From the IMG/VR virus record IMGVR_UViG_2802429221_000010: DNA of 17,400 nucleotides. The stretch is one strand, 5' to 3'. Under the pieces are notes generated by a model, which searched no databases, had not been told where the DNA came from, and saw only the letters and a program-made list of their open reading frames with translations. Below, one piece after another: positions 1 through 15,411 of the stretch. Source of the DNA: a virus (Duplodnaviria > Heunggongvirae > Uroviricota > Caudoviricetes). Each line of letters opens with the position of its first letter. Position 1 is the first letter of the stretch. The position numbers and the translations under genes were made by a program.

Positions 1-1215
1 ATGCTGCTTTCAGACCTTGCTATCAGACGCGCGAAGCCGAAAGAAAAGGCTTATACGCTCAATGACGGTAACGGGCTTTCGTTACTCATTGAGCCGAACG
101 GCTCGAAAGGGTGGCGACTACGTTACAGGTTTGCAGGAAAGCCCAAAATGTTGTCATTGGGCGTGTACCCTGATGTGTCTCTGTCTGATGCCAGGGCGGC
201 AAGGGATGAGGCTAAAAGGCTTCTTGCTGGTGGTATAAATCCAAGTGAGGCCAGAAAAGCCCAAAAGCGAGAACAGGCGAGCAAATTTGGCAATACTTTT
301 GAGGGTATCGCTCGCGAATGGTACGAAAAGCGGATCGACAGGTGGTCATCGTCATACGCCGAGGAAATGATCGAGACGTTTGAAAAAGACGTTTTTCCGT
401 ACATTGGCGGTAGGCCGATCGCAGAAATTAAGCCGATGGAATTGCTGGCGGTTCTTTCCCGTCTTAATGACCGTGGTGCGACTGAAAAATTGCGTAAGGT
501 TCGCCAGCGATGTGGCGAGGTGTTCCGGTACGCAATCATCACCGGACGCGCCGAATATAATCCAGCCCCTGACCTGGTGAGCGCATTTGCTCCACATAAA
601 AAAGAGCATTACGCCTATCTGAAGGCCGACGAACTGCCGGAATTTTTCCGCGTTTTTAATACGTACACCGGAAGCCAGATCGTCAAACTGGCAATGCGGC
701 TATTAATTCTGACAGGTGTCAGACCCGGGGAATTACGGCAGGCAGAATGGCGGGAGATCGATTTTGATAATCGTTTGTGGGAAGTGCCTAAAGAACGAAT
801 GAAGATGCGCCGTCCGCATTGTGTGCCATTACCAGAACAGGCGATAAAAATACTGGAGCAGTTAAAAAACATGACAGGCCAGTATCAGTTTATTTTCCCC
901 GGTCGTATTCACCACAGTAAGCCAATGAGTGAAATGGCGATGAATGTACTCATTCGTCGTATTGGCTACGCCGGGCGCGTCACTGGTCATGGATTCCGGC
1001 ACACCATGAGCACCATTTTGCATGAACAGGGCTATAACACTGCGTGGATAGAAACACAGCTTGCGCATGTTGATAAAAACTCAATTCGTGGCACGTACAA
1101 CCATGCGCAATATCTGGATGGTCGCCGGGAAATGCTCCAGTGGTACGCCGACTATATGGATTCGCTTGAGCATGGCGGAAATGTTGTTTACATAAAATCT
1201 GAAAAATTAAATTGA
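1..1215 (+). CDS. int: Tyrosine site-specific integrase, P4-type (phage integrase family)
   Basis: 404-aa ORF. N-terminal stretch LSDLAIRRAKPKEKAYTLNDGNGLSLLIEPNGSKGWRLRYRF matches the P4-type integrase arm-binding domain. C-terminal catalytic box GHGFRHT (H-x-x-R) plus downstream Tyr (TYNHAQY). ORF starts at window position 1, so the true start could lie upstream. Confidence 0.93.
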   Translation: MLLSDLAIRRAKPKEKAYTLNDGNGLSLLIEPNGSKGWRLRYRFAGKPKMLSLGVYPDVSLSDARAARDEAKRLLAGGINPSEARKAQKREQASKFGNTFEGIAREWYEKRIDRWSSSYAEEMIETFEKDVFPYIGGRPIAEIKPMELLAVLSRLNDRGATEKLRKVRQRCGEVFRYAIITGRAEYNPAPDLVSAFAPHKKEHYAYLKADELPEFFRVFNTYTGSQIVKLAMRLLILTGVRPGELRQAEWREIDFDNRLWEVPKERMKMRRPHCVPLPEQAIKILEQLKNMTGQYQFIFPGRIHHSKPMSEMAMNVLIRRIGYAGRVTGHGFRHTMSTILHEQGYNTAWIETQLAHVDKNSIRGTYNHAQYLDGRREMLQWYADYMDSLEHGGNVVYIKSEKLN

Positions 1216-2154: not shown

Positions 2155-2252
2155 ATTGTATTTAATTTAAATTTTAATATTTAATTTAAAAAATACATCC
2201 TTCTCTTGTGTATATTCCAGAAACAGACTTTTATATGCATCAGGAGAAGTGT

Positions 2253-2453
2253 ATGGATAAGCAAAATTTAATTCGTATGCCAGAAACCATGCGCCGTACA
2301 GGCTATGGTAGGGCATGGATCTATAAACTCATTGCCCAAGGGCGTTTTCCTAAACCTGTAAAAATTGGCTCGCGAGCGATTGCTTTCGTTGAGAGTGAAA
2401 TTGATGAGTGGATTAATCAGCGTATTGCGGAATCACGCGGAACAGCTACCTGA
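2253..2453 (+). CDS. alpA: AlpA-family transcriptional regulator / excisionase-like HTH protein
   Basis: Translation LIRMPETMRRTGYGRAWIYKLI...IAFVESEIDEWINQR parallels E. coli AlpA (ILRLPAVIQKTGMARATIYDWL...VGWIEAEIDEWLSQR). AGGAGA Shine-Dalgarno precedes the ATG at 2253; the ORF track start at 2208 lacks one. Confidence 0.85.
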   Translation: MDKQNLIRMPETMRRTGYGRAWIYKLIAQGRFPKPVKIGSRAIAFVESEIDEWINQRIAESRGTAT

Positions 2454-2531: not shown

Positions 2532-3332
2532 ATGAAACTGCGAAAAACGCCCGTACAGGGGCAGGGCTTCGTTCGGCCTGAAAACCAGAATCTGCAAAAT
2601 TTCGGCGAAATTATCCCGATTATTTCCGGCGTTATTGGCGGGAGTGAAACCACTATTGTTAGCGCCAGAGCGTTACATAAGGCGTTAGGTGTAGGGCGCG
2701 TTTTCCGTTCGTGGATCAAGGGGCGCATTGAAGAATACGGGTTCACGGAAGGCGTGGATTATGAGGTTGTTGAATATTTGAGCCGACCCGATCCGGTGAG
2801 CGCAAAATCTCGCCAGCAAACCGCTCTTGAGTACATCATCACAGTGAACATGGCAAAAGAACTGGCGATGGTCGAACGCACCGAACAGGGCCGCGCCGTT
2901 CGTCAGTACTTCATCAAATGCGAGGAGGAGCTACACAAGGTAGCGCCAGTGCGTTCCGCAGCGTTACGCCGGGAACTGAAAGCCCGTATCACAGTTGCCA
3001 GCTACTTTAAGCCAATGTGTGCCGCGTTGGAGGCGTACCGGGCTGAACTGGGTAAAAACACGTTCCAGCACCACTACACCACGGAAGCCAATATGCTGGC
3101 GCGTATCGTGCTGGGTGGCATGACTGCAAAACAGTGGGCGCAGGCGAACGGCATCACAGGCGAACCACGCGACCACATGAGCACGTTGCAGCTTGAGCAC
3201 CTTTCTTACCTTGAGCAGAGCAATATCACGCTGATTGAGTTAGGCCTGGACTACCACCAGCGGAAAGCTGAATTAATTCGTCTTTCGCAGCGTTGGTTAG
3301 CCCGTCGCATGGAGGAAAACAGCCATGTGTAA
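2532..3332 (+). CDS. Phage antirepressor-like protein (AntA/AntB-type N-terminal domain)
   Basis: 266-aa ORF with AGGAG Shine-Dalgarno. Segment SARALHKALGVGRVFRSWIKGRIEEYGFTEGVDYEV resembles the AntA-family core. Domain assignment is from memory, not a search. Confidence 0.65.
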   Translation: MKLRKTPVQGQGFVRPENQNLQNFGEIIPIISGVIGGSETTIVSARALHKALGVGRVFRSWIKGRIEEYGFTEGVDYEVVEYLSRPDPVSAKSRQQTALEYIITVNMAKELAMVERTEQGRAVRQYFIKCEEELHKVAPVRSAALRRELKARITVASYFKPMCAALEAYRAELGKNTFQHHYTTEANMLARIVLGGMTAKQWAQANGITGEPRDHMSTLQLEHLSYLEQSNITLIELGLDYHQRKAELIRLSQRWLARRMEENSHV

Positions 3333-4863
3333 CGCTCTGACCGTTACAAAAAGAGAAAGCGCCCCGTTGCCGGAGCGCCTTTGTGAACGAATAGCCTACT
3401 GCGCCATATTGCTTACTGTCTACGAGGCAGATTATAGCGTTGTGGTCGCACAGAGTGAAGGCGCTGATCACCGTTACTACAGCACGCCAGAAATGCAGAA
3501 TATTTTGCTGCAAAATGTCGTTGGTCACGCTGTCCGGAAAGCAAAAAATTTTGCTGGTAGCGCGACTGATGCGATTTTGTCAGGTCGCCAGGTGATGATC
3601 AATCTGATGTCTAATTTCGTTCTGGATAAAACAAAGGCGACCGCAGAGGGCCACCAGTGGGAAAGCTACACACTTGAACACATCGCCAACAATGCCAGAT
3701 TTGCGGCTGGTGGGCAATGTGATCAGTGTGCTGGCTTGCTGGTGGGCTATTCCTGCTCTTTAACATTGCCATGCCGCGATGTTTTCCAGGTATGCGACCC
3801 CATTTTTGTGCGCCTGTACTCTTTAAGGAATTTCTCAAGGATAAACGCACAGGGCGCGAATCTGTCTGACTCATATTCGTACGCTATCTTTCTGCGCTGT
3901 CTTTTCCGTGCCGGTGATGGTGTATTGGTTGATTCTTTGTTGGTCATTCTGTGTACCTGTAAAGCAATGCGCCGGAGTTCCTCACACCACGGCGATGATA
4001 GTTATTATTCTGATTCTTTGGCCTTGCGGCGCTGGAGTTCTTCACGTGCGACGGTGACGAGTTGCCCGATCTCCTCGACAGCTTTGACTCCGATTTTTTC
4101 CACCTGCGCCAGTGCATTGAGCGAAGAAACCAGGGGATTTTCTCCGCTTCCTTCTGCCTGGCGGCGGGCGATCTCACCACGCATGGCGGTTACTATGAAT
4201 CCGGCGTTGCTTTCGCCGTCCAGTTTTACGGATTCCATGCCTTCAAAAGCATCATGTGGGATACGAATTGAAATCTGTTTTGATTTGTCGTTGATAGTGT
4301 TTTTTGCCATGTGCATTCTCCTAAACAAAAGATGTGATTCAGTATACACAAAAAAGAATCACAAAAAATACTTGACCTGTGATTCAGTTAAATTTAATTT
4401 AAATCACACCTCAGTAAGAGGATGTAAACGACAACGCCCCGAACTGTTTGCGGCAGTAGCGGGGCGTCTAACCAAACCGTTAAATGAGGTAACGATTATG
4501 GCTGGGGCACAGCATACCCAAACTCACCCTAAATTTATATACACCTTCCTGGCGGTGCACCGTGATTGCATGGCTGACGGTAAAAACACTGTTCATGTAG
4601 CCGCCGATACGCTGGTTGATGCCTGCGAGATGCTCAATGACATGGGCTATATCTCGGCAACATGGAAAGGGCGCGAAGAAAACACGTTGTTTATTCAGAA
4701 ATGCGAAAACAATTTTATCTGGCGTTTTATCGCCCTGAGTACGGCACAACCGCGCGTGATTCACATCGAGGCCACCAGCGAACAGGAAGCACGCCAGCAA
4801 TCTCCTGATGGCTGCGTGATGGTATTCGCTGCCCATATTCGCCAGGAGGTGGAGCATGTGTAA
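3325..4863 (+). CDS. ORF of uncertain extent: translationally coupled start, plausible coding N-terminus, remainder probably not a real 512-aa protein
   Basis: ATG at 3325 overlaps the upstream stop (ccATGTGTAAcg). First roughly 120-160 codons have protein-like composition. From about 3800 the translation turns Ser/Cys/Arg-rich and low-complexity, runs antisense through the RHH-like gene (4005-4310) and its operator region, and ends in frame with the better-supported start at 4498. Confidence 0.25.
   Translation: MCNALTVTKRESAPLPERLCERIAYCAILLTVYEADYSVVVAQSEGADHRYYSTPEMQNILLQNVVGHAVRKAKNFAGSATDAILSGRQVMINLMSNFVLDKTKATAEGHQWESYTLEHIANNARFAAGGQCDQCAGLLVGYSCSLTLPCRDVFQVCDPIFVRLYSLRNFSRINAQGANLSDSYSYAIFLRCLFRAGDGVLVDSLLVILCTCKAMRRSSSHHGDDSYYSDSLALRRWSSSRATVTSCPISSTALTPIFSTCASALSEETRGFSPLPSAWRRAISPRMAVTMNPALLSPSSFTDSMPSKASCGIRIEICFDLSLIVFFAMCILLNKRCDSVYTKKNHKKYLTCDSVKFNLNHTSVRGCKRQRPELFAAVAGRLTKPLNEVTIMAGAQHTQTHPKFIYTFLAVHRDCMADGKNTVHVAADTLVDACEMLNDMGYISATWKGREENTLFIQKCENNFIWRFIALSTAQPRVIHIEATSEQEARQQSPDGCVMVFAAHIRQEVEHV
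4005..4310 (-). CDS. Ribbon-helix-helix-like small DNA-binding protein; candidate element repressor
   Basis: Translation MAKNTINDKSKQISIRIPHDAFEGMESVKLDGESNAGFIVTAMRGEI has a beta-strand then helix pattern typical of RHH (CopG/Arc) folds. AGGAGA sits 6 nt before the ATG at 4310 on the minus strand. Divergent from the + strand gene run, with palindromic repeats between. Confidence 0.6.
   Translation of the reverse strand: MAKNTINDKSKQISIRIPHDAFEGMESVKLDGESNAGFIVTAMRGEIARRQAEGSGENPLVSSLNALAQVEKIGVKAVEEIGQLVTVAREELQRRKAKESE
4330..4412. promoter_or_regulatory. Divergent promoter/operator region with TGTGATTC inverted repeats
   Basis: TGTGATTC (4333-4340) and GAATCACA (4355-4362) form one palindrome; TGTGATTCAG (4377-4386) and AATCACA (4402-4408) form a second. 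A TTGACC -35-like hexamer (4371-4376) lies between them, with a possible -10 TAATTT about 17 bp downstream. Confidence 0.45.
4498..4863 (+). CDS. Hypothetical protein, 121 aa
   Basis: ATG at 4498 preceded by GAGGT 7 nt upstream, located downstream of the promoter/operator region. Globular-looking composition. Stop overlaps the next gene's start (gcATGTGTAAtg). Confidence 0.5.
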   Translation: MAGAQHTQTHPKFIYTFLAVHRDCMADGKNTVHVAADTLVDACEMLNDMGYISATWKGREENTLFIQKCENNFIWRFIALSTAQPRVIHIEATSEQEARQQSPDGCVMVFAAHIRQEVEHV

Positions 4864-5861: not shown

Positions 5862-6152
5862 ATGAAAAAGAAAAATTCTGGCTTTACTGCCAGCGGTCTC
5901 TCTCGGCCTGAAATCAGACACGGAGATATTTACCGCGACACCATACGTGGGGGACGAGCGGTTATTTGTCATGTTACGCCAGAAAATATCACCTACCGCC
6001 GTGACGCTTATGAATATGACTGCATAATGCCGTGCCGTCAGTTTGAGCGTGATTTTATTCTGGTGGAGAACAAACAACAGGAAGCGACGAGACGTGCAGC
6101 CATGAATATTAAAAAAATCCGGGCAATGTTGGTTGCGGGAGGTAAGAAGTGA
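5862..6152 (+). CDS. Hypothetical protein, 96 aa
   Basis: Stop-bounded ORF immediately upstream of the primase; its TGA overlaps the primase GTG start (GTGA at 6149-6152). Confidence 0.5.
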   Translation: MKKKNSGFTASGLSRPEIRHGDIYRDTIRGGRAVICHVTPENITYRRDAYEYDCIMPCRQFERDFILVENKQQEATRRAAMNIKKIRAMLVAGGKK

Positions 6153-7954
6153 AAAACGCACCGAGTCTAAAATATCAGCCGAAGGATAAATTCACTGAGG
6201 TAATCATTTTTGCCGGGACGGATGCTTACGCCCATGCTCAACACTGGATTGAAAGTGAAGGACGAAAACACGGCGATAACGTGCCTCCTGTTTACCTGGG
6301 GCCAAAGCAACTGGCAGACCTGGCGAATATCCGCATTATTGACGAGAAACGCCGTTTTGCGCGTGTCTATATCGCGGGGGAGATAGAGCCAATCCAGATC
6401 AATACTATCGCTGAAAAGCTGGCGCTGGCTGGCGTACAGGACGCGAAATTATACAAAGGTATCACCGACCGGGAGCCGGAAAACTGGCGCGACTACCTGC
6501 AACGGATCCGCGAACAGGCAGAGAGTGGGGAAGTTTCAGCGATGAAATTAGCCACAAAAAATATTGACCTACCCAGGCCAGCACTAAATCAGATGGGAGC
6601 CAGCCAGAGAGGGGAAGTGTTACTTGAATATTATGGAAGAGCACTGGCTATAAATGATGATTCTGATGTAGTTCACCATTACAACGGAATTGTCTGGGTG
6701 CCTGTATCTGATAAGGAACTCCAGCGGTCTATGGCGAAGATTTTTATTGATGCTGGAATCAGTTATTCGCAAAACGCCATTAAATTTGCCGTAGACACAA
6801 TGAAATTGAGCCTGCCTGTTATGGGCGGGGCAGACAGGAATCTTATTGGATTCAGTAACGGGGTATTTGATACCCGGACGGGAAATTTTCGGGAGCATAA
6901 CAAAAATGACTGGTTGTTAAATGCCAGTGAATTACCGTTCAGCCCACCAGCAGAGGGGGAAACGCTGGCAACACATGCGCCGAATTTCTGGAAGTGGCTG
7001 CGTCGTTCGGTGGCAGATAATGATCGTAAAGCTGATCGCGTACTGGCGGCATTATTCATGGTACTGGCGAACCGGTACGACTGGCAGTTATTCCTTGAGG
7101 TAACAGGCCCAGGCGGAAGCGGTAAAAGTGTGATGGCTGAGATTTGTACCATGCTGGCGGGTAAGGCCAACACAGTATCGGCAAGCATGAAGGCTCTGGA
7201 AGACGCAAGGGAACGCGCGTTAGTAGTTGGCTTTTCGCTGATTATCATGCCGGATATGACTCGCTACGCTGGCGATGGTGCAGGAATTAAGGCAATTACT
7301 GGCGGCGACAAGGTGGCAATTGATCCGAAACATAAAGCCCCCTACTCCACACGTATTCCGGCAGTAGTGCTTGCGGTAAACAATAACGCCATGTCATTCA
7401 GTGACCGAAGCGGGGGGATCTCGCGTCGTAGGGTGATATTTAATTTCTCTGAGGTCGTACCGGAGAACGAACGCGATCCCATGCTGGCGGAAAAGATAGA
7501 AGGCGAACTGGCGGTAGTGATTCGCCATTTGCTAACACGATTTACCGACCAGGACGAAGCTAAAAGACTACTTTATGAGCAGCAAAAATCAGAAGAAGCG
7601 CTGTTGATAAAGCGCGAAGGTGATTCACTGGTGGACTTTTGCGGCTATCTGATGTCGTTGGTTAAATGTGAAGGAATGATGGTGGGCAATGCGGAAATAG
7701 TGCCATTTAGCCCGAGGCGATACCTGTATCATGCTTATTTAGCCTATATGTCAGCGCATGGCCTGGGAAAACCAGTATCACTGACACGCTTTGGTACTGA
7801 TATGCCAGGAGCTATGGCGGAATACGGAAAGGAGTATAAGCGGGCTAAATGCACTAAAGGCCCGGATAAAGGGCGAGTGATAACAAATGTTCTGTTAGAT
7901 GATGATGCTGATGGCTGGTTGCCAGCAGCTACAGGGATTAACGACAGAACATAA
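6149..7954 (+). CDS. Primase-helicase-type replication protein (P4 alpha / D5-like NTPase)
   Basis: 601-aa ORF with Walker A GPGGSGKS at 7106-7129 and a downstream hydrophobic strand ending in acidic residues (LIIMPDM). The N-terminal half is long enough for a primase-like domain. Immediately followed by an iteron array. Confidence 0.88.
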   Translation: MKNAPSLKYQPKDKFTEVIIFAGTDAYAHAQHWIESEGRKHGDNVPPVYLGPKQLADLANIRIIDEKRRFARVYIAGEIEPIQINTIAEKLALAGVQDAKLYKGITDREPENWRDYLQRIREQAESGEVSAMKLATKNIDLPRPALNQMGASQRGEVLLEYYGRALAINDDSDVVHHYNGIVWVPVSDKELQRSMAKIFIDAGISYSQNAIKFAVDTMKLSLPVMGGADRNLIGFSNGVFDTRTGNFREHNKNDWLLNASELPFSPPAEGETLATHAPNFWKWLRRSVADNDRKADRVLAALFMVLANRYDWQLFLEVTGPGGSGKSVMAEICTMLAGKANTVSASMKALEDARERALVVGFSLIIMPDMTRYAGDGAGIKAITGGDKVAIDPKHKAPYSTRIPAVVLAVNNNAMSFSDRSGGISRRRVIFNFSEVVPENERDPMLAEKIEGELAVVIRHLLTRFTDQDEAKRLLYEQQKSEEALLIKREGDSLVDFCGYLMSLVKCEGMMVGNAEIVPFSPRRYLYHAYLAYMSAHGLGKPVSLTRFGTDMPGAMAEYGKEYKRAKCTKGPDKGRVITNVLLDDDADGWLPAATGINDRT

Positions 7955-7981
7955 TACGAAATTTATAAGCTGAAACGTAAA

Positions 7982-8319
7982 GGTAGACGGTTGGTAGACA
8001 GATTCACTTAACCCTCTACCAACCATCTACCAATTAATATTTTGAATTATAAAGATATTTTCAATGTGGTAGAGAGGTAGACAGTTATTTCTATATTCCT
8101 AAACCACGGGGGGTATATAAAAAACAGATAGTTAAGGGGGCATTTTTTAAATTTCTCTTTTAACTGTCTACACTGTCTACCATTTAGTAAAAATCATTAA
8201 TTATCAATGTATTAATGCGGTAGACCGTTGGTAGACAGTTTGCAGATTGTTTTTTTGTTATGTGTTAATAACATTAAATAAATCAATCAATTATATCGGT
8301 AGACAGTTGGTAGACAGTT
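7982..8319. repeat. Iteron array / putative replication origin of the element
   Basis: Six copies, in both orientations, of a doublet of GGTAGACAG-like units: ggtagacggttggtagacag (7982-8001), inverted copy (about 8012-8033), ggtagagaggtagacag (8069-8085), inverted copy (8163-8181), ggtagaccgttggtagacag (8219-8240), ggtagacagttggtagacag (8298-8319). Interspersed with AT-rich spacers, directly 3' of the primase-helicase gene. Confidence 0.7.
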
Positions 8320-8337
8320 GTAACGATGGGGCAAAGC

Positions 8338-8868
8338 ATGACTAAGCTGACCATTAACAGAAAACCAAAAGGTATTTACGGCACGCCGCAGAAAACGACG
8401 CAGGCGGCGCAGCAGCAGGATAAAACCACATCGGCGCATAAAGTGATGCCCGGTAACCAGAAAGCGCAGCAGAAGCCCACAGGGGCAACACCGTGGCGGC
8501 ATATGACCAAACGGCAGCGAAAAAACCGCAGACGCGTTAACCGCCTCACTGAGTTGTGGCCTGAATTATTCAGCCGGGAAGCACCGAAGCCGCTTAAGGT
8601 GGGGATATTCGACGACCTGATGCAGGATCTCGCCGTCAGGGGGCTGGCATTCGGGCCAGGGGCATTGCGTGCGACGCTGGCATCTTATGCGCAGTGTCCG
8701 CGCTATTACCGCGCCTTAATGGCTGGTGGGGTACGCTACGACCTGAAATGCCAGCCGTGCGGCGAGGTGACACCACAGGAACAACAGGACGCAGAAACGC
8801 GGCTGGTTGCGCTGAATGAGAAACGCAAACGTCAGCGTCGGGCAGCAAAGGAGAAAACAGGCGCATGA
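8338..8868 (+). CDS. ProQ/FinO-domain RNA-binding protein
   Basis: Segment PLKVGIFDDLMQDLAVRGL...LRATLASYAQCPRYYRALMAGGVRYDLKCQPCGEVTPQEQ aligns with E. coli ProQ N-terminal domain (PLKIGIFQDLVDRVAGEM...[39 protein letters not shown]). N-terminal half is basic and low-complexity. Start could be 8326 or 8338. Confidence 0.8.
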   Translation: MTKLTINRKPKGIYGTPQKTTQAAQQQDKTTSAHKVMPGNQKAQQKPTGATPWRHMTKRQRKNRRRVNRLTELWPELFSREAPKPLKVGIFDDLMQDLAVRGLAFGPGALRATLASYAQCPRYYRALMAGGVRYDLKCQPCGEVTPQEQQDAETRLVALNEKRKRQRRAAKEKTGA

Positions 8869-9152
8869 TTCACGACAGCAAAGCGGAAGCTCTGGAAGCG
8901 CGTGGTCTGTACCGGAGAGCGGCGGCGCGGTGGGCTGAGGTCATCATGCTGGCGAATGATGACAAGGCACGGGAACAGGCGGCAAAACGTCGCGCGGAAT
9001 GTATCCACAAGGCAGCACGCCCACCAGCAAGGCAGGATAATTTCGGGGAGATGCGCAAAACCATCAGCCGGGCACATGCCGGGATGGGATTACATCAGCC
9101 CAATGGTGAGGCATTCAGGAAATACCAAAAAAAGAACAATTGTAGTCAGTAA
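8865..9152 (+). CDS. PerC-family transcriptional regulator-like protein
   Basis: 95-aa ORF with ATGA overlap onto the upstream stop. N-terminal SKAEALEARGLYRRAAARWAEVI resembles the PerC/Pch signature as I recall it; not checked by search. Confidence 0.6.
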   Translation: MIHDSKAEALEARGLYRRAAARWAEVIMLANDDKAREQAAKRRAECIHKAARPPARQDNFGEMRKTISRAHAGMGLHQPNGEAFRKYQKKNNCSQ

Positions 9153-9286: not shown

Positions 9287-10429
9287 ATGAATAAAACTTT
9301 AATTGCAACATTAGTCGGTATAGTAATGTTAACCGGATGTGGGCCAGAAGAGTTAACTCCAGAACAGAAACAGGAAGTAGCGGCTCTTAAAGCTGAACTG
9401 TCGCAAACGGAAGGTGAAATATCAGCAGCTAAGGAAGTTGACCAGCAGTTTTCTGGTGGGTTGATAAAAAATCTGACAACAGCAAGACTGGAAATATTAG
9501 GAACTAATAAAGCGCTTTTGGAACAGCGTATTAATGCTATTGAATCAGGCGCCAAAATTGATGTTGTTGTATCTGGAGTAAAACCTGATCCTGAGCTTGC
9601 GGCTTCAATTAAAACTGAAATTGACAGCTTAGATGCAAAAATCAACGAAGCCAAAGCTGATGCTCGTCAGTATAGTGGTGGTCTGATAAAGGTACTAAAA
9701 TTATCTACTGTTGCCACTGAAGAGCAGACTATGGCAATGTTGCAGCAAAAGTACCTCACAGCCAAGTATGGCCTCGCTGAAGTTAAGCTGGCATCAGTAC
9801 AAGATAATGACGCAAAAAACAGTACTGAAACGGAAGTAACAGCCAAAAATTCCCAAGATCAACTTCCTTTACTCCCGCCAGCGGATGGTCCGTTTGGCTT
9901 AGAAGCCGGTCTTACACAGAAAAACATCGAAGATATGATCGGTGCTAAGCTCAAGCCACTACCAGACAGTGTGAATCTGTATACTTCTGATAAATTACCG
10001 AAGCAAAACGCAGATTTTGAAATGTATGGTTTGTTGATCTCCCCGAAAGCTGGTTTATGTCAAATACGGGCTTTAGGAAAAAATATTGATACTGATAGCT
10101 ATGGATTGGCTCTTAAATCCAAGTTTGAAGAATTGAGTAATTCTTTAAGTTCTCTGTATGGAAAGGCTGATACTACAGACTTTTTGCTGGCTGGTTCAAT
10201 TTGGAAAGATCCTCAGGACTGGATGAGGGGGCTAAACAAAAAAGAACGCTTCTTATCTGCCACATGGAAAGGAACAAAAGAAATACCATTAAAAAACAAT
10301 ATTGATACTATCTCTATTGAGGCCAGAGCGAACAATTCCACTCAGGGATATGTCTATCTGCAGTACTCATTTACAAATGACGAAATTTGTCAGGCAGAAA
10401 TTGAAGGGGCGAAAAAAAGTTCCCTTTAA
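9287..10429 (+). CDS. Lipoprotein, 380 aa, with internally repeated coiled-coil-like N-terminal region; function unknown
   Basis: Signal peptide with lipobox MNKTLIATLVGIVMLTGC. Two copies of the motif (Q/R)Q(F/Y)SGGLIK(N/V)L within helical, charged segments. AGGGA Shine-Dalgarno. Lower GC than the replication module. Confidence 0.8.
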   Translation: MNKTLIATLVGIVMLTGCGPEELTPEQKQEVAALKAELSQTEGEISAAKEVDQQFSGGLIKNLTTARLEILGTNKALLEQRINAIESGAKIDVVVSGVKPDPELAASIKTEIDSLDAKINEAKADARQYSGGLIKVLKLSTVATEEQTMAMLQQKYLTAKYGLAEVKLASVQDNDAKNSTETEVTAKNSQDQLPLLPPADGPFGLEAGLTQKNIEDMIGAKLKPLPDSVNLYTSDKLPKQNADFEMYGLLISPKAGLCQIRALGKNIDTDSYGLALKSKFEELSNSLSSLYGKADTTDFLLAGSIWKDPQDWMRGLNKKERFLSATWKGTKEIPLKNNIDTISIEARANNSTQGYVYLQYSFTNDEICQAEIEGAKKSSL

Positions 10430-10442
10430 ACAATCCGTGCAA

Positions 10443-10468
10443 AGCCCCTTAGTAAGGGGCTTTTATAT
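10443..10468 (+). terminator. Rho-independent terminator
   Basis: GC stem GCCCCTT / AAGGGGC with a 3-nt loop, followed by TTTTATATAT, 14 nt after the lipoprotein stop. Confidence 0.6.
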
Positions 10469-10494
10469 ATTAATGTCCAACGGGGGGGGATTAG

Positions 10495-10818
10495 ATGAAA
10501 GATAATCTAGAAAAACTAATTGAAAATACTTTAAAAGATATTCTATTAGCTAATGCTGCTCTAACATTCATTTTTGCAATACCAATGGCTATTATCAGTA
10601 GGCATGGGATGGGCATCACAATCTGGTTTATAACTGTGCTCATTGCACCTGCTCTGTGTGCAGTAGGTGCATGGCTTGTATCTCGAACATTCGGCCATGC
10701 TGAGGAGTTTTTTCATCGTCGGTGGGCTAAGCGAATTTATGTTTTTTATACTCTTGCGGCTGCCGAGTTTTTGCTTGTGTACTCAATCGCGCAAATAATG
10801 AAAAATCTGATGAAATAA
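10495..10818 (+). CDS. Small inner-membrane protein, 107 aa, two or three predicted transmembrane helices
   Basis: GGGGGGGA Shine-Dalgarno. Hydrophobic stretches ALTFIFAIPMAIIS, ITIWFITVLIAPALCAVGAWLV and IYVFYTLAAAEFLLVYSIA. Confidence 0.7.
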   Translation: MKDNLEKLIENTLKDILLANAALTFIFAIPMAIISRHGMGITIWFITVLIAPALCAVGAWLVSRTFGHAEEFFHRRWAKRIYVFYTLAAAEFLLVYSIAQIMKNLMK

Positions 10819-11096
10819 TTAACAAGTTATTATCATGGGGTTTGTGGCTGTTAACCTGCAGTGAGGCGACAATCGTGTATTTATAAAAACTTCCCCTTTT
10901 CACTCCCCGCTGTTTCTTCTGCTATTGCCTTTATGTTTGCATGCACCAACATCTGCCATACTTTTGCAGAAAAATCAGAGCATTCAGTGCCGAAGGTTGG
11001 TTTATTGATGCTTTTCGTTTCATTTATTGCAATTGTCTCTGGTATCATTTCAATTTGTGCAATAATTGCAATTATTGTCATTCAGAAGGGATCATC

Positions 11097-11264
11097 ATGA
11101 AAAATCACGGAGTAAAGCCAGTTTTACTTTCCCGGAGGCAGATCGAAGCCCTGCAACGCATCCAGGACGAAGAGCGTCAGAAATCTGTGCTTGGTGTGGC
11201 ACCGTCGATTCATGTTATCGCTCGGCAACTGATGGATAAGGCACTTAAAGAGGTGAGACTGTGA
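11097..11264 (+). CDS. Small putative DNA-binding protein, 55 aa, RHH-like
   Basis: AAGGGA 6 nt before the ATG at 11097. Sequence VKPVLLSRRQIEALQRIQDEERQ fits a strand-helix RHH pattern. The longer track ORF starting at 10941 has an implausible Cys/Phe-rich N-terminus. Confidence 0.45.
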   Translation: MKNHGVKPVLLSRRQIEALQRIQDEERQKSVLGVAPSIHVIARQLMDKALKEVRL

Positions 11265-11331
11265 AATTAAATATCAGAGTGGATAAACCCAGCTATGGCA
11301 GAAAAAAGAGAACAGCGAGGCATTCAGGGCG

Positions 11332-11532
11332 TTGCTGGTGGAAAATCTTCAGCACCGGTTCAGTGGAGAGTTGCCTGATGCTCTAGGGAAGAAACTGGAA
11401 TCCCTGACGGTGGAAATTGGCGATTATGGCTTTGTTGATGTTGAAAGCACGACTGCCAACACAGAAATCGTAAAACAGGTCGTCAATGATGTAATGAAAA
11501 CCACGCTTAGCCAGCCATCCTGGCGCAACTGA
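11332..11532 (+). CDS. Small hypothetical protein, about 64-66 aa, non-ATG start
   Basis: Open frame with only TTG (11332) or GTG (11338) starts. Acidic, globular-looking translation. Followed by hairpin AGGGGC...GCCCCT at about 11541-11566. Confidence 0.35.
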   Translation: MLVENLQHRFSGELPDALGKKLESLTVEIGDYGFVDVESTTANTEIVKQVVNDVMKTTLSQPSWRN

Positions 11533-11632
11533 ATCAGTAAGGGGCGGTTATTGCCCCTTTCCTCCATACCCACAACGCATTCCCTTTCCGCATGAAATTA
11601 TTTTTTTATCGTATATGCATGAGGTGAGCTAC

Positions 11633-12160
11633 ATGTTGATGAGTAAAGCCGAATACGCCAAATACAAAGGCGTAAGCCGCCAGACAGTTTACGACTGGAT
11701 CGAGAAAGGCGAAGTGATCATGTCTGGCAAAAAAATTGATGTGGATGCGACAGATCAGCGGAACAGCCCACCAGCACAGGGGAAAGACACCGTTTCTGAA
11801 ATGTGGCCAGAGAGAACGCTGGAAATGACGTGGGGCGAGTTCTGGAAAGCAGTTAAGGCCAGAGACGGTAAAATCCCTGCACCAGTAACGGACGATGACA
11901 TACGGCAGCGTGTGCTGAATGCAGCCGGGGAATTAGGCTGGGAAGTGCACTTTCTTGATGATGGTGCTATCTGCCTTGAGGATGATGAAGGACAGCATTA
12001 CTTTGAACAATACAATTTGCGGGGTAATGCCTGGCTGGCAATTCATATGCTGCGTTGTGAACTATGCTATGTTGCCAGCGATTGTCCCGATGAACAGGAC
12101 ACATGGAGTGAGGCAGGACTAAACGCCCTGGCTGAATGGGAAAAATCAGGCCATCAATGA
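11633..12160 (+). CDS. HTH-domain protein, 175 aa; excisionase/terminase-small-subunit-like N-terminus
   Basis: GAGGTGAG Shine-Dalgarno before the ATG at 11633. N-terminus SKAEYAKYKGVSRQTVYDWIEKGEV is an HTH of the type seen in lambda Nu1 and excisionase-like proteins. Immediately followed by a direct-repeat array. Confidence 0.7.
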   Translation: MLMSKAEYAKYKGVSRQTVYDWIEKGEVIMSGKKIDVDATDQRNSPPAQGKDTVSEMWPERTLEMTWGEFWKAVKARDGKIPAPVTDDDIRQRVLNAAGELGWEVHFLDDGAICLEDDEGQHYFEQYNLRGNAWLAIHMLRCELCYVASDCPDEQDTWSEAGLNALAEWEKSGHQ

Positions 12161-12164
12161 CCTC

Positions 12165-12458
12165 AAAAAGTGTCAAGTTGAGCAGCTTGCCAGGTTGACA
12201 CTTTACACTCTGAACGCGAAAAAGTGTCAACCTTGCTGGAAGCCGCGCCATTACTGGCCTTGTACCATATTCACCACGTCAAAAAACCGAAAAAATCGCG
12301 AAAAGTGTCAAGTTGCCATGCTTAGAAATGCCAGGGATGGTTAAGTTTTGTTAAGGTTTTTCCCGAAAAAGTGTCAAGTGTGTCAATCTGCGATATTAAG
12401 ATTTATTAAGGCCTTAAGCCGGAAAGTGTCAACCAGCCCCCTAAGATTTCCTAAGGTG
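12165..12458. repeat. Array of AAAGTGTCAA direct/inverted repeats interleaved with TTAAGNTTT-N-TTAAGG repeats; putative protein-binding region
   Basis: AAAAGTGTCAAG at 12165-12177; inverted TTGACACTT at 12195-12203 (9-bp arms, 18-bp spacer); further copies near 12219-12231, 12300-12313, 12366-12380 (double) and 12422-12433. Second family: ggttaagttttgttaaggtt (about 12339-12358), attaagatttattaaggcc (about 12394-12412), cctaagatttcctaaggtg (about 12440-12458). Confidence 0.6.
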
Positions 12459-13424: not shown

Positions 13425-14480
13425 GTGTCTACACAGAAAATTGAAGAAAAATTTACATCTGCACAAGATGCATTAGTAATTCAGCAATCCGATTTATCAT
13501 TAAAGTCACTTTCTGATATGGTTGAATTAGATGCAGTAGATATAAGTCCAAAATATCAGAGAAGGGAGCGTTGGACTGCGGAGAAAGAGTCAAGTTTGAT
13601 TGAATCATTCTTGCTAAACATCCCGGTCCCGCCAATTTATCTCGCAGAGGATAGATATGGAATCTACTCAGTAATAGATGGAAAGCAAAGAATAACGGCT
13701 ATAAATAAATTTTTAACAAATAAAATGAAACTCGTGGAATTAGAAAAATTTCCAGAGTTAGAAGGGTTCTATTTTAAAGACTTACCCCAACCTCTTTCTA
13801 ATGCATTAAGCATCCGACCATATTTAAGAGTGGTCACATTATTGCGCCAATCTGACCCAGACTTAAAGCATGAAGTCTTTCTGAGATTAAATAAAGCAGG
13901 AGTATCTTTAAATTCTCAAGAGATAAGAAATGTTGCTTTTAGAGGGGATTTAAATGATGCTCTTATTGAACTGTCGGATACTCCATTTTTAAAAGAAATG
14001 CTTAAATCAAATAAAAATACTAAAATTTACCAAGAAATGGGAGATGTTCAGTTTGTGTTGAGGTTTTTTACTGTGTTTGATTTGTGGGAAAATTTTCCAG
14101 GTAATATGGATAAAGCTATGGATCTATTTATGGCGAAAAAATCTCGCAGCTCAATTCAAGATGTTAACGAAATGAAGCGGTTATTTTTGCGCTCAATTCA
14201 TTTTTGCGAGACGGTGTGGGGTAATGATGCATACAAAAGAATTGATAACAGTCAACGCGTAATTCAAGGTATGTATGATGTCCAGATGGTTTGCCCTGCC
14301 TTTTTACAACAAAATGAATATGATCATGCCATGGAAAATGCTGCTGATGTAAGACGACTCTTAGTTGATGAACTTTCAAATAATGCGGATTTTCTTGAAT
14401 CAGTGACTCAGTTCACGTCTAACCCAAGAAATATTGCATATAGAATATCACACTTCTGTGACCTTCTGAGAAGAATTTAA
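13425..14480 (+). CDS. DUF262-domain protein (ParB/Srx-like NTP-binding domain as in GmrSD-type enzymes N-termini)
   Basis: GTG start with AAGGG 7 nt upstream. N-terminal motif ISPKYQRRERW (13548-13580) fits the DUF262 P-x-(F/Y)-Q-R...W box; DGKQRITA (13677-13700) fits the DGQQR box. AT-rich. Stop TAA 14478-14480 lies 1 nt before the next ATG. Confidence 0.85.
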   Translation: MSTQKIEEKFTSAQDALVIQQSDLSLKSLSDMVELDAVDISPKYQRRERWTAEKESSLIESFLLNIPVPPIYLAEDRYGIYSVIDGKQRITAINKFLTNKMKLVELEKFPELEGFYFKDLPQPLSNALSIRPYLRVVTLLRQSDPDLKHEVFLRLNKAGVSLNSQEIRNVAFRGDLNDALIELSDTPFLKEMLKSNKNTKIYQEMGDVQFVLRFFTVFDLWENFPGNMDKAMDLFMAKKSRSSIQDVNEMKRLFLRSIHFCETVWGNDAYKRIDNSQRVIQGMYDVQMVCPAFLQQNEYDHAMENAADVRRLLVDELSNNADFLESVTQFTSNPRNIAYRISHFCDLLRRI

Positions 14481-14481
14481 T

Positions 14482-15411
14482 ATGCCTATTCCAGCGAAGG
14501 ACAATTTGCTAAAAAGAATCCTGTCTGTAGATAATGCAACTCAACTACCAGCACTTATCGATAAAGATGTTATGCAGGAACAACACAATATCACAGCTAA
14601 TCTTCTGAGAAAAGGCTTAGGTATAGTAGCATTTAATATTCTGGAAGATTTTATAAAATCCAGAACTATAGAAATGTTTGATTTTATATCTAATGCACGT
14701 GTGAGATTCGAGCAGTTACCCGATTCTTTTAGAATTGCAGCAACAAATGGTGCATTAAGAGGATTAGTATATCAGGCTGGATTAGAAAAGAAAAATAATG
14801 GAGATTGGTTGGCACTAATACATTCTGAGGCCAAAAGTATTTTTTCAACGTCGCAATTTCCTTATACATTATCTCGAGTATCACTTCTTTCAGATGGTTC
14901 TAATGTTGGACATGATGATATACCAGAAGTAATGAAGTGTCTTGATATAACTGGTGGGTGGAAGACATTACAAAAAATATCGAACGATATTGGTGGTGGT
15001 ACATTAGATCTGAATGCTGCTTATAAAAATATGTTTTTCGATAGAAATAGATGTGCTCATGAAGCAGGTTTTAATTATCCATATACCTCTCTCGATAATT
15101 CTTTAAATGACATTGTTACTATTGCTTCTGCATTTGACATAGCGTTAACTACTCGTTGCAGGTATATAGAAAAACAACCTAATTTACCGCTTTCAGCTCA
15201 TAAAGAAAAAGATCCGTTTTCATATCGGTTTTTAATCGCTGATGGAGATGTTTTTCGAGAGAAAAAATCATTAGAACCTGGTGCGAAAACAATAAAAAAA
15301 TGGAGTAATATCTCTGATGCACAATCTAATTTAATTCCTAAGCTAAGACTCCGCGATGAGTTTTTGATTTATATAGGAAAACAGAGAAGGCTTAGTGATT
15401 GGTATTTGTGA
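14482..15411 (+). CDS. Hypothetical protein, 309 aa, with a HEPN-like R-x4-H motif; partner of the DUF262 gene
   Basis: Tightly coupled to the DUF262 gene (TAAtATG). Contains FDRNRCAHEAG (R-x4-H at 15043-15060), compatible with a HEPN RNase active site. No DUF1524/HNH-like (D/E)H-x-x-P motif seen. AT-rich. Confidence 0.75.
   Translation: MPIPAKDNLLKRILSVDNATQLPALIDKDVMQEQHNITANLLRKGLGIVAFNILEDFIKSRTIEMFDFISNARVRFEQLPDSFRIAATNGALRGLVYQAGLEKKNNGDWLALIHSEAKSIFSTSQFPYTLSRVSLLSDGSNVGHDDIPEVMKCLDITGGWKTLQKISNDIGGGTLDLNAAYKNMFFDRNRCAHEAGFNYPYTSLDNSLNDIVTIASAFDIALTTRCRYIEKQPNLPLSAHKEKDPFSYRFLIADGDVFREKKSLEPGAKTIKKWSNISDAQSNLIPKLRLRDEFLIYIGKQRRLSDWYL

Follow-up and report, generated by a model that had tools for sequence, protein, structure and literature searches.

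A probable replication origin directly downstream of a P4 alpha-related helicase gene in a putative Gram-negative phage-inducible chromosomal island

The IMG/VR virus record IMGVR_UViG_2802429221_000010 (17,400 nucleotides [nt]; the whole of this stretch is called the window here) contains an AT-rich intergenic region with clustered short repeats, located directly 3' of a gene encoding a helicase of 601 amino acids (aa). This arrangement raises the question of whether the repeats mark the place where the element starts its replication and, if so, which protein reads them. We assign a probability of about 85% to the reading that a Gram-negative phage-inducible chromosomal island (PICI) uses the region as its origin of vegetative replication. 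That it is an iteron-type origin recognized by the element's own initiator, as the first-pass annotation of this DNA had proposed, is supported at the sequence level by the homology of the adjacent protein to Protein Data Bank (PDB) entry 1KA8, by the layout of the island EcCICFT073, by 22 of 23 related loci, and by the co-variation of repeat type and protein tail.

Inspection of the region revealed 12 GGTAGAC-type heptamers, which are paired as six doublets (D1 to D6) within positions 7982 to 8315. Four doublets lie on the plus strand and two on the minus strand, which bears out the earlier description of six doublets in both orientations. The GTAGA core is kept in 12 of 12 sites; the heptamers of D2 are the variants GGTAGAT and GGTAGAG, and those of D4 are TGTAGAC and GGTAGAC. 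The consensus that had been given for the doublets, GGTAGAC(N)GTTGGTAGACAG (register of 11 bp), holds for D1, D5, D6, and the inverted D2 but not for D3 (8 bp) and D4 (9 bp). The first repeat stands 27 bp past the TAA stop codon of the helicase gene (7952 to 7954), and the spacers between the doublets are AT-rich (64 to 89%); both the position and the spacers had been described correctly. The window contains 10 exact copies of GGTAGAC, 8 of which fall inside 7982 to 8315 (334 bp). Shuffles of the whole window gave a mean of 0.72 copies and a maximum of 4, and none of 200 shuffles reached 10. The two exact copies outside the region are lone sites (4885 and 15707), which corresponds to chance level, and pairs of GTAGA cores spaced 6 to 14 bp apart were confined to this region, with none elsewhere in the 17.4 kb.

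The GC content is 28 to 33% in the region and 45 to 60% in the flanking genes. The repeats form two copies of one module, in which inverted doublets surround a very AT-rich spacer: module A (8014 to 8082) consists of D2 on the minus strand, the first such spacer, and D3 on the plus strand, and module B (8166 to 8236) consists of D4 on the minus strand, the second spacer, and D5 on the plus strand. D1 lies upstream of both modules, and D6 lies downstream (Table 1). The three least stable 30-bp stretches of the region (8031 to 8062, 8185 to 8216, and 8266 to 8295) all rank within the top 1% for the entire window; for the 30-mer 8032 to 8061, the nearest-neighbor free energy was -27.4, compared to a window mean of -38.8. 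The spacers within the two modules are candidate unwinding sites. A short repeat clustered above chance was thus found beside easily melted AT-rich DNA, as in iteron-type origins. In alignments with the origins of relatives that have GTAGAC-type repeats, D4-spacer-D5 matches their first module. D1 and D2 together form an inverted repeat of 17 nt (94% complementary), and the end of D6 lies approximately 10 to 22 bp before the start of the ProQ/FinO gene. A 38-nt unit composed of ATCAATnnATTAnnnnC and an iteron doublet was also observed at 8203 to 8240 and again, 79 bp apart and with 84% identity, at 8282 to 8319. Because each copy of this unit starts with a match to the integration host factor (IHF) consensus and carries a doublet, D5 and D6 appear to stem from a duplication in place.

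Table 1. Features of the window and wing motifs of the related helicases (positions refer to the window)
Feature	Position	Strand	Remarks
Integrase	1-1215	+	Arm-DNA-bind_3, Phage_int_M, Phage_integrase domains
AlpA-like regulator	2208-2453	+	PHROG "excisionase and transcriptional regulator," E 3e-12
Initiator-helicase (putative), 601 aa	6149-7954	+	Pfam D5_N, DUF5906, Pox_D5
N-terminal domain, residues 1-128	6149-6532	+	Stands where P4 has its primase domain
Origin-binding domain (predicted), residues 491-592	7619-7924	+	phmmer against PDB 1KA8, E 6.2e-19
Wing segment KRAKCTKGPDKGRVITNVLL, residues 564-583	7838-7897	+	5-residue insertion (GPDKG) relative to P4
Probable origin region, whole	7955-8325	.	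371 bp; AT-rich, intergenic, 12 iterons
Doublet D1	7982-7999	+	11-bp register; GGTAGACGGTTGGTAGAC
Doublet D2, left arm of module A	8014-8031	-	11-bp register; minus strand, GGTAGATGGTTGGTAGAG
Spacer D2-D3 (divergent doublets)	8032-8067	.	36 bp, 89% AT; least stable DNA of the region
Doublet D3, right arm of module A	8068-8082	+	8-bp register; GGTAGAGAGGTAGAC
Central segment D3-D4 (convergent doublets)	8083-8165	.	83 bp, 70% AT, two G-runs
Doublet D4, left arm of module B	8166-8181	-	9-bp register; GGTAGACAGTGTAGAC
Spacer D4-D5 (divergent doublets)	8182-8218	.	37 bp, 84% AT; IHF-consensus match at 8202
Doublet D5, right arm of module B	8219-8236	+	11-bp register; GGTAGACCGTTGGTAGAC
Spacer D5-D6	8237-8297	.	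61 bp, 80% AT; IHF-consensus match at 8281
Doublet D6	8298-8315	+	11-bp register; GGTAGACAGTTGGTAGAC
ProQ/FinO-domain protein	8326-8868	+	Q/K-rich N-terminal extension; directly after the probable origin
PerC	8865-9152	+	Followed by several open reading frames without an assigned family
GmrSD_N/DUF262 gene and RiboL-PSP HEPN gene	13425-15411	+	Adjacent, distal island end; E 5e-23 and E 2e-6
Wing after EYGKEY, GTAGAC type			K-R-x-x-x-T-[KR]-[GN]-P-D-K-G-R-x-x-[ST]-N-V-L-L
Wing after EYGKEY, GGTGAAC type including P4			TK[HQNE]G[ILMV][RQ][ST]N
Wing after EYGKEY, GGTGGAG type			KSTKG[NH]MRSN
Wing after EYGKEY, GGCGGAC type			KKATRGRIQSN
Wing after EYGKEY, GGTAGAT type			TIKGRRQTN

The protein encoded next to the repeats comprises an N-terminal domain that weakly resembles TOPRIM (residues 1 to 128), a D5_N and superfamily 3 (SF3) helicase core, and a C-terminal origin-binding domain of the P4 alpha type. 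Its open reading frame (ORF) is full length, and the Walker A motif (GPGGSGKS) and the other SF3 motifs are intact. Residues 146 to 592 are 50% identical to residues 327 to 769 of P4 alpha, and the ATPase/SF3 core matches structure 7OLA of PriRep5 from the Staphylococcus aureus pathogenicity island (SaPI) SaPI5 (E 8.5e-10). The C-terminal domain matches 1KA8, the solved origin-binding domain of P4 alpha. One segment of this domain, called the wing here by analogy with winged-helix domains, carries the residues GPDKG, an insertion that is absent from the wing of P4; this segment varies in step with the repeat sequence. The protein had been labeled a primase-helicase. The helicase part of this label stands (SF3 core, Walker A), and the primase part is not supported because the P4 primase domain (alpha residues 1 to 326) has no counterpart in the window protein. 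The name "primase" derives solely from TIGR01613 ("primase_Cterm"), which spans the helicase part. Residues 1 to 154 gave no Pfam or NCBIfam match in sequence searches; a structure search gave a weak TOPRIM-like fold signal for residues 1 to 128, in which the usual TOPRIM glutamate is missing by eye (IIFAG). A primase catalytic domain was not recognized in the protein. Homology supports the name helicase-initiator for this product. The 128-residue N-terminal domain is a mobile module, which further E. coli islands have joined to helicases of the RepA/AAA_25 type; besides the window protein, it is carried by proteins P0004, P0007, P0016, and P0034, and its DNA is 71% identical in locus L031 (related loci are given with L numbers). 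Escherichia ruysiae (L002) encodes a helicase with 100% identity to that of the window.

An experimental precedent for this arrangement is provided by EcCICFT073, in which pri-rep together with its 3' region maintained a temperature-sensitive plasmid, and deletion of rep or ori reduced plasmid maintenance (Fillol-Salom et al. 2018; PMC6092414). Comparison with this island revealed 43% full-length identity between its Pri-Rep protein and the window protein, and the C terminus of Pri-Rep also matches 1KA8. Within 290 bp past the pri-rep stop codon, EcCICFT073 contains 11 GGTAGA[C/T/G] sites in both orientations, and the published primer for the pri deletion includes GGTAGACAGGGTAGACAG. Both islands are transcribed unidirectionally and have the gene order int, AlpA-like helix-turn-helix gene, YlcI/YnfO, Icd-like gene, small ORFs, DUF4222, "DNA primase family protein," AT-rich repeats, and PerC in common. 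They differ in the wing (TRKVKGVTQTN in EcCICFT073 and KRAKCTKGPDKGRVITN in the window), in the repeats, which are a mixture of GGTAGAC, GGTAGAT, and GGTAGAG in EcCICFT073, in the number and spacing of the modules, in the integration site, and in the downstream genes (hypothetical/single-stranded DNA-binding protein/PerC/capsid in EcCICFT073, compared to ProQ-FinO/PerC/unknown in the window).

The SaPI initiators Rep and PriRep are self-loading hexameric helicases with a C-terminal winged-helix domain, which act on 6 to 12 short iterons; these iterons lie just downstream of rep and have an AT-rich center with at least two opposed iterons on each side (PMC9371898). The window region fits this SaPI/PICI layout. 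The similarity to SaPIs is distant and concerns the ATPase core only, and the SaPIs differ in repeat sequence, in host phylum, and in being transcribed divergently from a repressor, whereas the heptamers of the window are arranged in doublets. The window contains a terminal integrase, a regulator of the AlpA family, transcription in one direction, and a pri-rep homologue followed by two iteron sets flanking AT-rich DNA, as in Gram-negative PICIs. The homology to EcCICFT073 suggests that the element may also need a helper phage for its induction, replication, and packaging, which is a further PICI trait. EcCIMP1, an experimentally studied island at thrW, was considered as a case of the same replicon and was ruled out, as its primase is a different protein (918 aa, TOPRIM-DUF927).

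When one genome per species was scanned, 23 homologue loci were found in other Enterobacterales, among them Klebsiella, Kluyvera, Raoultella, Enterobacter, Serratia, Erwinia, and Pantoea. All but one of the 23 loci (22) have an over-represented heptamer within 350 bp past the helicase stop codon, with 4 to 9 copies each, and the same heptamer occurred 0 to 3 times in the remaining 5 to 7 kb. None of 200 shuffles reached the observed count in 19 of these 22 loci, and 1 to 3 shuffles did so in the other three. The exception was L024, the most P4-like homologue, in which GGTGAAC clusters flank the gene on either side at a distance of 2 to 3 kb, as in P4, and none adjoins it. The heptamers across the loci were GGTAGAC(A), GGTGAAC(A), which is that of P4, GGTGGAG, GGTGGAC, GGCGGAC, and GGTAGAT. 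The genes downstream of the repeats belong to approximately 19 unrelated groups; because these genes vary across the relatives, the repeats travel with the helicase and not with ProQ or PerC. The repeat region of the window was found in 105 of 5,426 complete E. coli genomes, always in the chromosome, and was contiguous with this helicase in 102 of the 105. A 100% identical copy is present in an island of E. coli 537-20, beside tRNA-Thr and proBA. Another relative is a 16.5-kb "induced prophage" record deposited as "Escherichia phage vB_KppS-Ant" (L026; LR881103), which contains capsid, portal, and terminase genes and, at 9938 to 12289, a helicase of 74% identity with ten GGTGAA[C/T] repeats behind it. 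This phage deposit apparently represents a capsid-forming PICI.

The C-terminal sequences were aligned and sorted by iteron type, and sliding identity was calculated. Across 24 loci, P4, and EcCICFT073, the repeat type tracks the last ~40 to 60 residues of the protein and not the remainder (wing motifs in Table 1). The helicase of L023 is 95 to 100% identical to those of L019 and L020 over ~520 aa and 40 to 67% identical in the last ~60 aa, and its repeats are of the GGTGGAG type, compared to GGTGAAC in L019 and L020. The same mosaic pattern was found for L015 and L014. L020 (JBCNOW010000024) and L023 (JBCNOW010000009), with their different tails and repeats, come from the same metagenome-assembled genome (SMAGNO137); the origin of L020 looks truncated. 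The helicase is matched in ~850 E. coli genomes. In ~650 E. coli genomes, the DNA similarity of the helicase allele to the window ends at nt 1690 of the gene (window position 7838); this position falls in codon 564, with which the wing begins. Three such E. coli alleles were fetched; their wings read MK[RK][KR]TK[HE]G[LV]RSNV, and each is accompanied by nine GGTGAAC repeats. The tail of the L038-type allele reads MKRKTKHGLRSNV.... P4 alpha, which is just 50% identical to the window protein, has the wing motif TK[QH]G[IL][QR][ST]N and the GGTGAAC repeat in common with L003 to L009 and L038 to L040. Near-identical helicases bear different wings and repeats (GGTGAAC, GGTAGAC, GGTGGAG, GGTGGAC, GGCGGAC, and GGTAGAT).

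These data suggest, as a tentative proposal whose odds we place a little short of even, that the last ~40 helicase codons and the adjoining iteron field constitute one exchangeable specificity cassette that P4 has in common with classical PICIs and with those that form capsids (for example, vB_KppS-Ant). If the proposal is true, such cassettes would provide orthogonal replicons for co-resident satellites and a natural series for decoding winged-helix recognition.

For the window, the following mechanism can be envisaged. The 601-aa protein would act as a self-loading SF3 helicase-initiator, the C-terminal P4 alpha-type domain of which would recognize the GGTAGAC heptamers, and the origin-binding domains of the helicase subunits would occupy paired sites approximately one helical turn apart. 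The divergent doublet sets beside the 36- to 37-bp spacers (84 to 89% AT) may load hexamers head to head, upon which the spacer would open. Induction and excision of the island by a helper phage would then be followed by replication independent of the initiator of the helper or the host. We infer binding, the melting site, hexamer stoichiometry, and replication, and the idea that the twelve sites fit two hexamers is speculation.

Several observations weigh against the origin reading or the specificity that we attach to it. No DnaA boxes were found in 7900 to 8400; this result does not help to define the function, and it is consistent with initiation without the host initiator. P4 is known to initiate without the host initiator. 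Consensus scans for promoters and terminators gave counts not above shuffle level. In an alignment of ten related copies of the region (nine from E. coli and one from E. ruysiae), the iteron columns were no less variable than the spacers (15/84 compared to 65/287 variable columns; Fisher p 0.45), so that purifying selection on the iterons has no support at this alignment depth. Physical linkage may account for part of the co-variation, because wing and repeats lie side by side and would recombine and be passed on together even if they had no interaction. The mapping of wing to repeat is also not one-to-one: EcCICFT073 and L021/L022 have a very different wing and a near-identical GGTAGA core. 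Finally, crr, the positional equivalent of the window region in P4, is a cis-acting helper and not the start site.

This last point leads to the most serious rival, which owes its weight to the positional match with P4 crr: the region may be a crr-like cis-acting enhancer to which the initiator binds, with synthesis starting elsewhere in the island. The annotated "ori type 1 repeats" of P4 (GGTGAACA, on the other strand) are present in ori and in crr, and crr (P4 positions 4291 to 4590) lies directly 3' of alpha, the stop of which is at 4636, just as the iteron cluster of the window lies directly 3' of its helicase gene. P4 crr consists of a duplicated unit whose iterons point in both directions, and the window likewise contains two similar modules (D2-AT-D3 and D4-AT-D5). 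Furthermore, P4 ori is located 4.5 kb from crr, and L024, the most P4-like locus, has its GGTGAAC clusters 2 to 3 kb to either side of the gene. Such an enhancer is nevertheless rather improbable here, given that the 17.4 kb contains no second cluster or doublet (the two lone GGTAGAC sites being at chance level) and that the rep gene and 3' region of EcCICFT073 alone were enough for plasmid maintenance (PMC6092414).

The wider comparison with P4 gives a mixed picture. The helicase and origin-binding domain are 50% identical, so that the window helicase is of the alpha type, and both elements use related 7- to 8-mers in both orientations (GGTGAACA in P4 and GGTAGACA in the window); the exact P4 repeat is used by many E. 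coli and Klebsiella relatives of the window helicase. In contrast, P4 alpha has a 326-residue primase domain, which the window protein lacks, and P4 depends on ori and crr as two sites apart from each other, whereas the window has one cluster. The sid, psu, delta, and epsilon families were not among the Pfam and PHROG matches of the scanned window ORFs. The window was therefore not classed as a P4-like satellite, for which a primase domain, sid/psu/delta/epsilon, and separate ori and crr would be expected. The layout itself is already known from EcCICFT073 and P4. Because the region is probably a further example of a PICI/P4-type origin, the novelty is limited to a new allele, in which a GPDKG-wing helicase is combined with GGTAGAC doublets in two modules.

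The position of the repeats between two genes also allows a transcriptional explanation, according to which they have no origin function and mainly serve as operators or a promoter for ProQ/FinO-PerC, or as a terminator or RNA-stabilizing hairpin (D1/D2) of the helicase mRNA. The D1/D2 RNA forms a 16-bp hairpin, and the segment 7955 to 8060 folds at -28.8 kcal/mol (z -6.2); D6 ends close to the ProQ start, as stated above. A 95% identical copy of the region precedes ProQ/PerC in E. coli ETEC1747 (L031), where it stands behind a different, RepA-type helicase. This copy, however, follows a truncated ProQ fragment and starts within the final 50 bp of the gene for the alpha-like helicase (window position 7904), and it is therefore a recombination relic and not an independent ProQ leader. 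Moreover, across 22 loci the repeats stay with the helicase while the downstream gene changes, and the repeat type tracks the helicase C terminus. The promoter and terminator scans at shuffle level also argue against a transcriptional role, as does Rfam, which yielded nothing credible in the whole window, the sole hit being a sub-threshold plastid 3' untranslated region match on the D1/D2 hairpin. On balance, a mainly transcriptional role is very unlikely. The L031 locus itself (NZ_CP122722, 452 to 2872) represents a hybrid island with a RepA-family helicase and its own AAAGTGAGGA repeat field, which is followed by a 120-bp ProQ 5' fragment, the relic through the GGTAGAC origin, and a full ProQ gene. 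Two origin types thus stand in tandem there, and several of the relic iterons are substituted.

The region could also be an inactive relic, that is, an origin-like sequence in a decayed, non-replicating island. Decay is evident in related copies (IS3 insertions at 8209 in several strains and in the helicase gene of L034, and the L031 relic), and within the E. coli group the iterons are not more conserved than the spacers. In the window, on the other hand, the helicase ORF is full length with its SF3 motifs, all 12 GTAGA cores are kept, and the integrase and AlpA-like ORFs are open, which makes a dead island a remote explanation for this copy. The IS3-family insertion at ~8209 lies between D4 and D5 and was found in several E. 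coli strains (L028, NZ_CP069996, 2755 to 4021); in another strain (L034, NZ_CP195980, 774 to 1936), IS3 interrupts the helicase gene. The copies disrupted by IS3 are probably inactivated.

An origin at this position marks the island as a probably self-replicating phage satellite and not a dead prophage remnant. Self-replication bears on the spread of its cargo, namely, the PerC regulator, the ProQ/FinO-type RNA-binding protein, and the DUF262-HEPN pair. The comparative pattern is more useful than the single locus: the repeat of P4 itself recurs in hundreds of E. coli islands, and helicase alleles that are near-identical up to the last ~40 to 60 residues but adjoin different repeats represent a testable set of initiator-origin pairs. 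Possible uses concern replicon specificity, satellite incompatibility, and orthogonal origins for engineering.

The remaining gene content of the window was analyzed from the integrase to the distal end (Table 1). All large ORFs from position 1 to ~15.4 kb are on the plus strand. Between the AlpA-like gene and the helicase gene, an AntA antirepressor, an Icd-like segment, and DUF4222 were found. The ORF at 3325 to 4863 (512 codons) has a family match in its last ~50 residues only (PHROG "transcriptional repressor"), and its counterpart in L001 is annotated as small minus-strand genes and an Icd-like gene that is truncated. The 512-codon ORF is possibly not a genuine gene. The start of the ProQ/FinO gene is placed at 8338 by PGAP and not at 8326, and Rfam found no partner RNA for its product. 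The DUF262-HEPN pair looks like an anti-phage defense carried as satellite cargo. Gram-negative PICIs are expected to be small (about 8 to 15 kb) and to lack sets of phage structural or lysis genes; in the window, no capsid, portal, tail, or lysis families were detected among the 20 ORFs scanned, several of which gave no match (e.g., 9287 to 10429).

No att repeat that would delimit the right end of the island was found. The tRNA-Thr gene of the related thrW island L001 was considered as the attachment site and rejected, as it has no match in the window, and the integrase modules of the two islands differ. The whole of 1 to 2400 was matched by just 2 of the 5,426 E. coli genomes. The integrase end (1 to 2345) has no megablast match to L001, and the remainder is shared at 96 to 98% identity, which indicates that one replication module has been joined to different integration modules.

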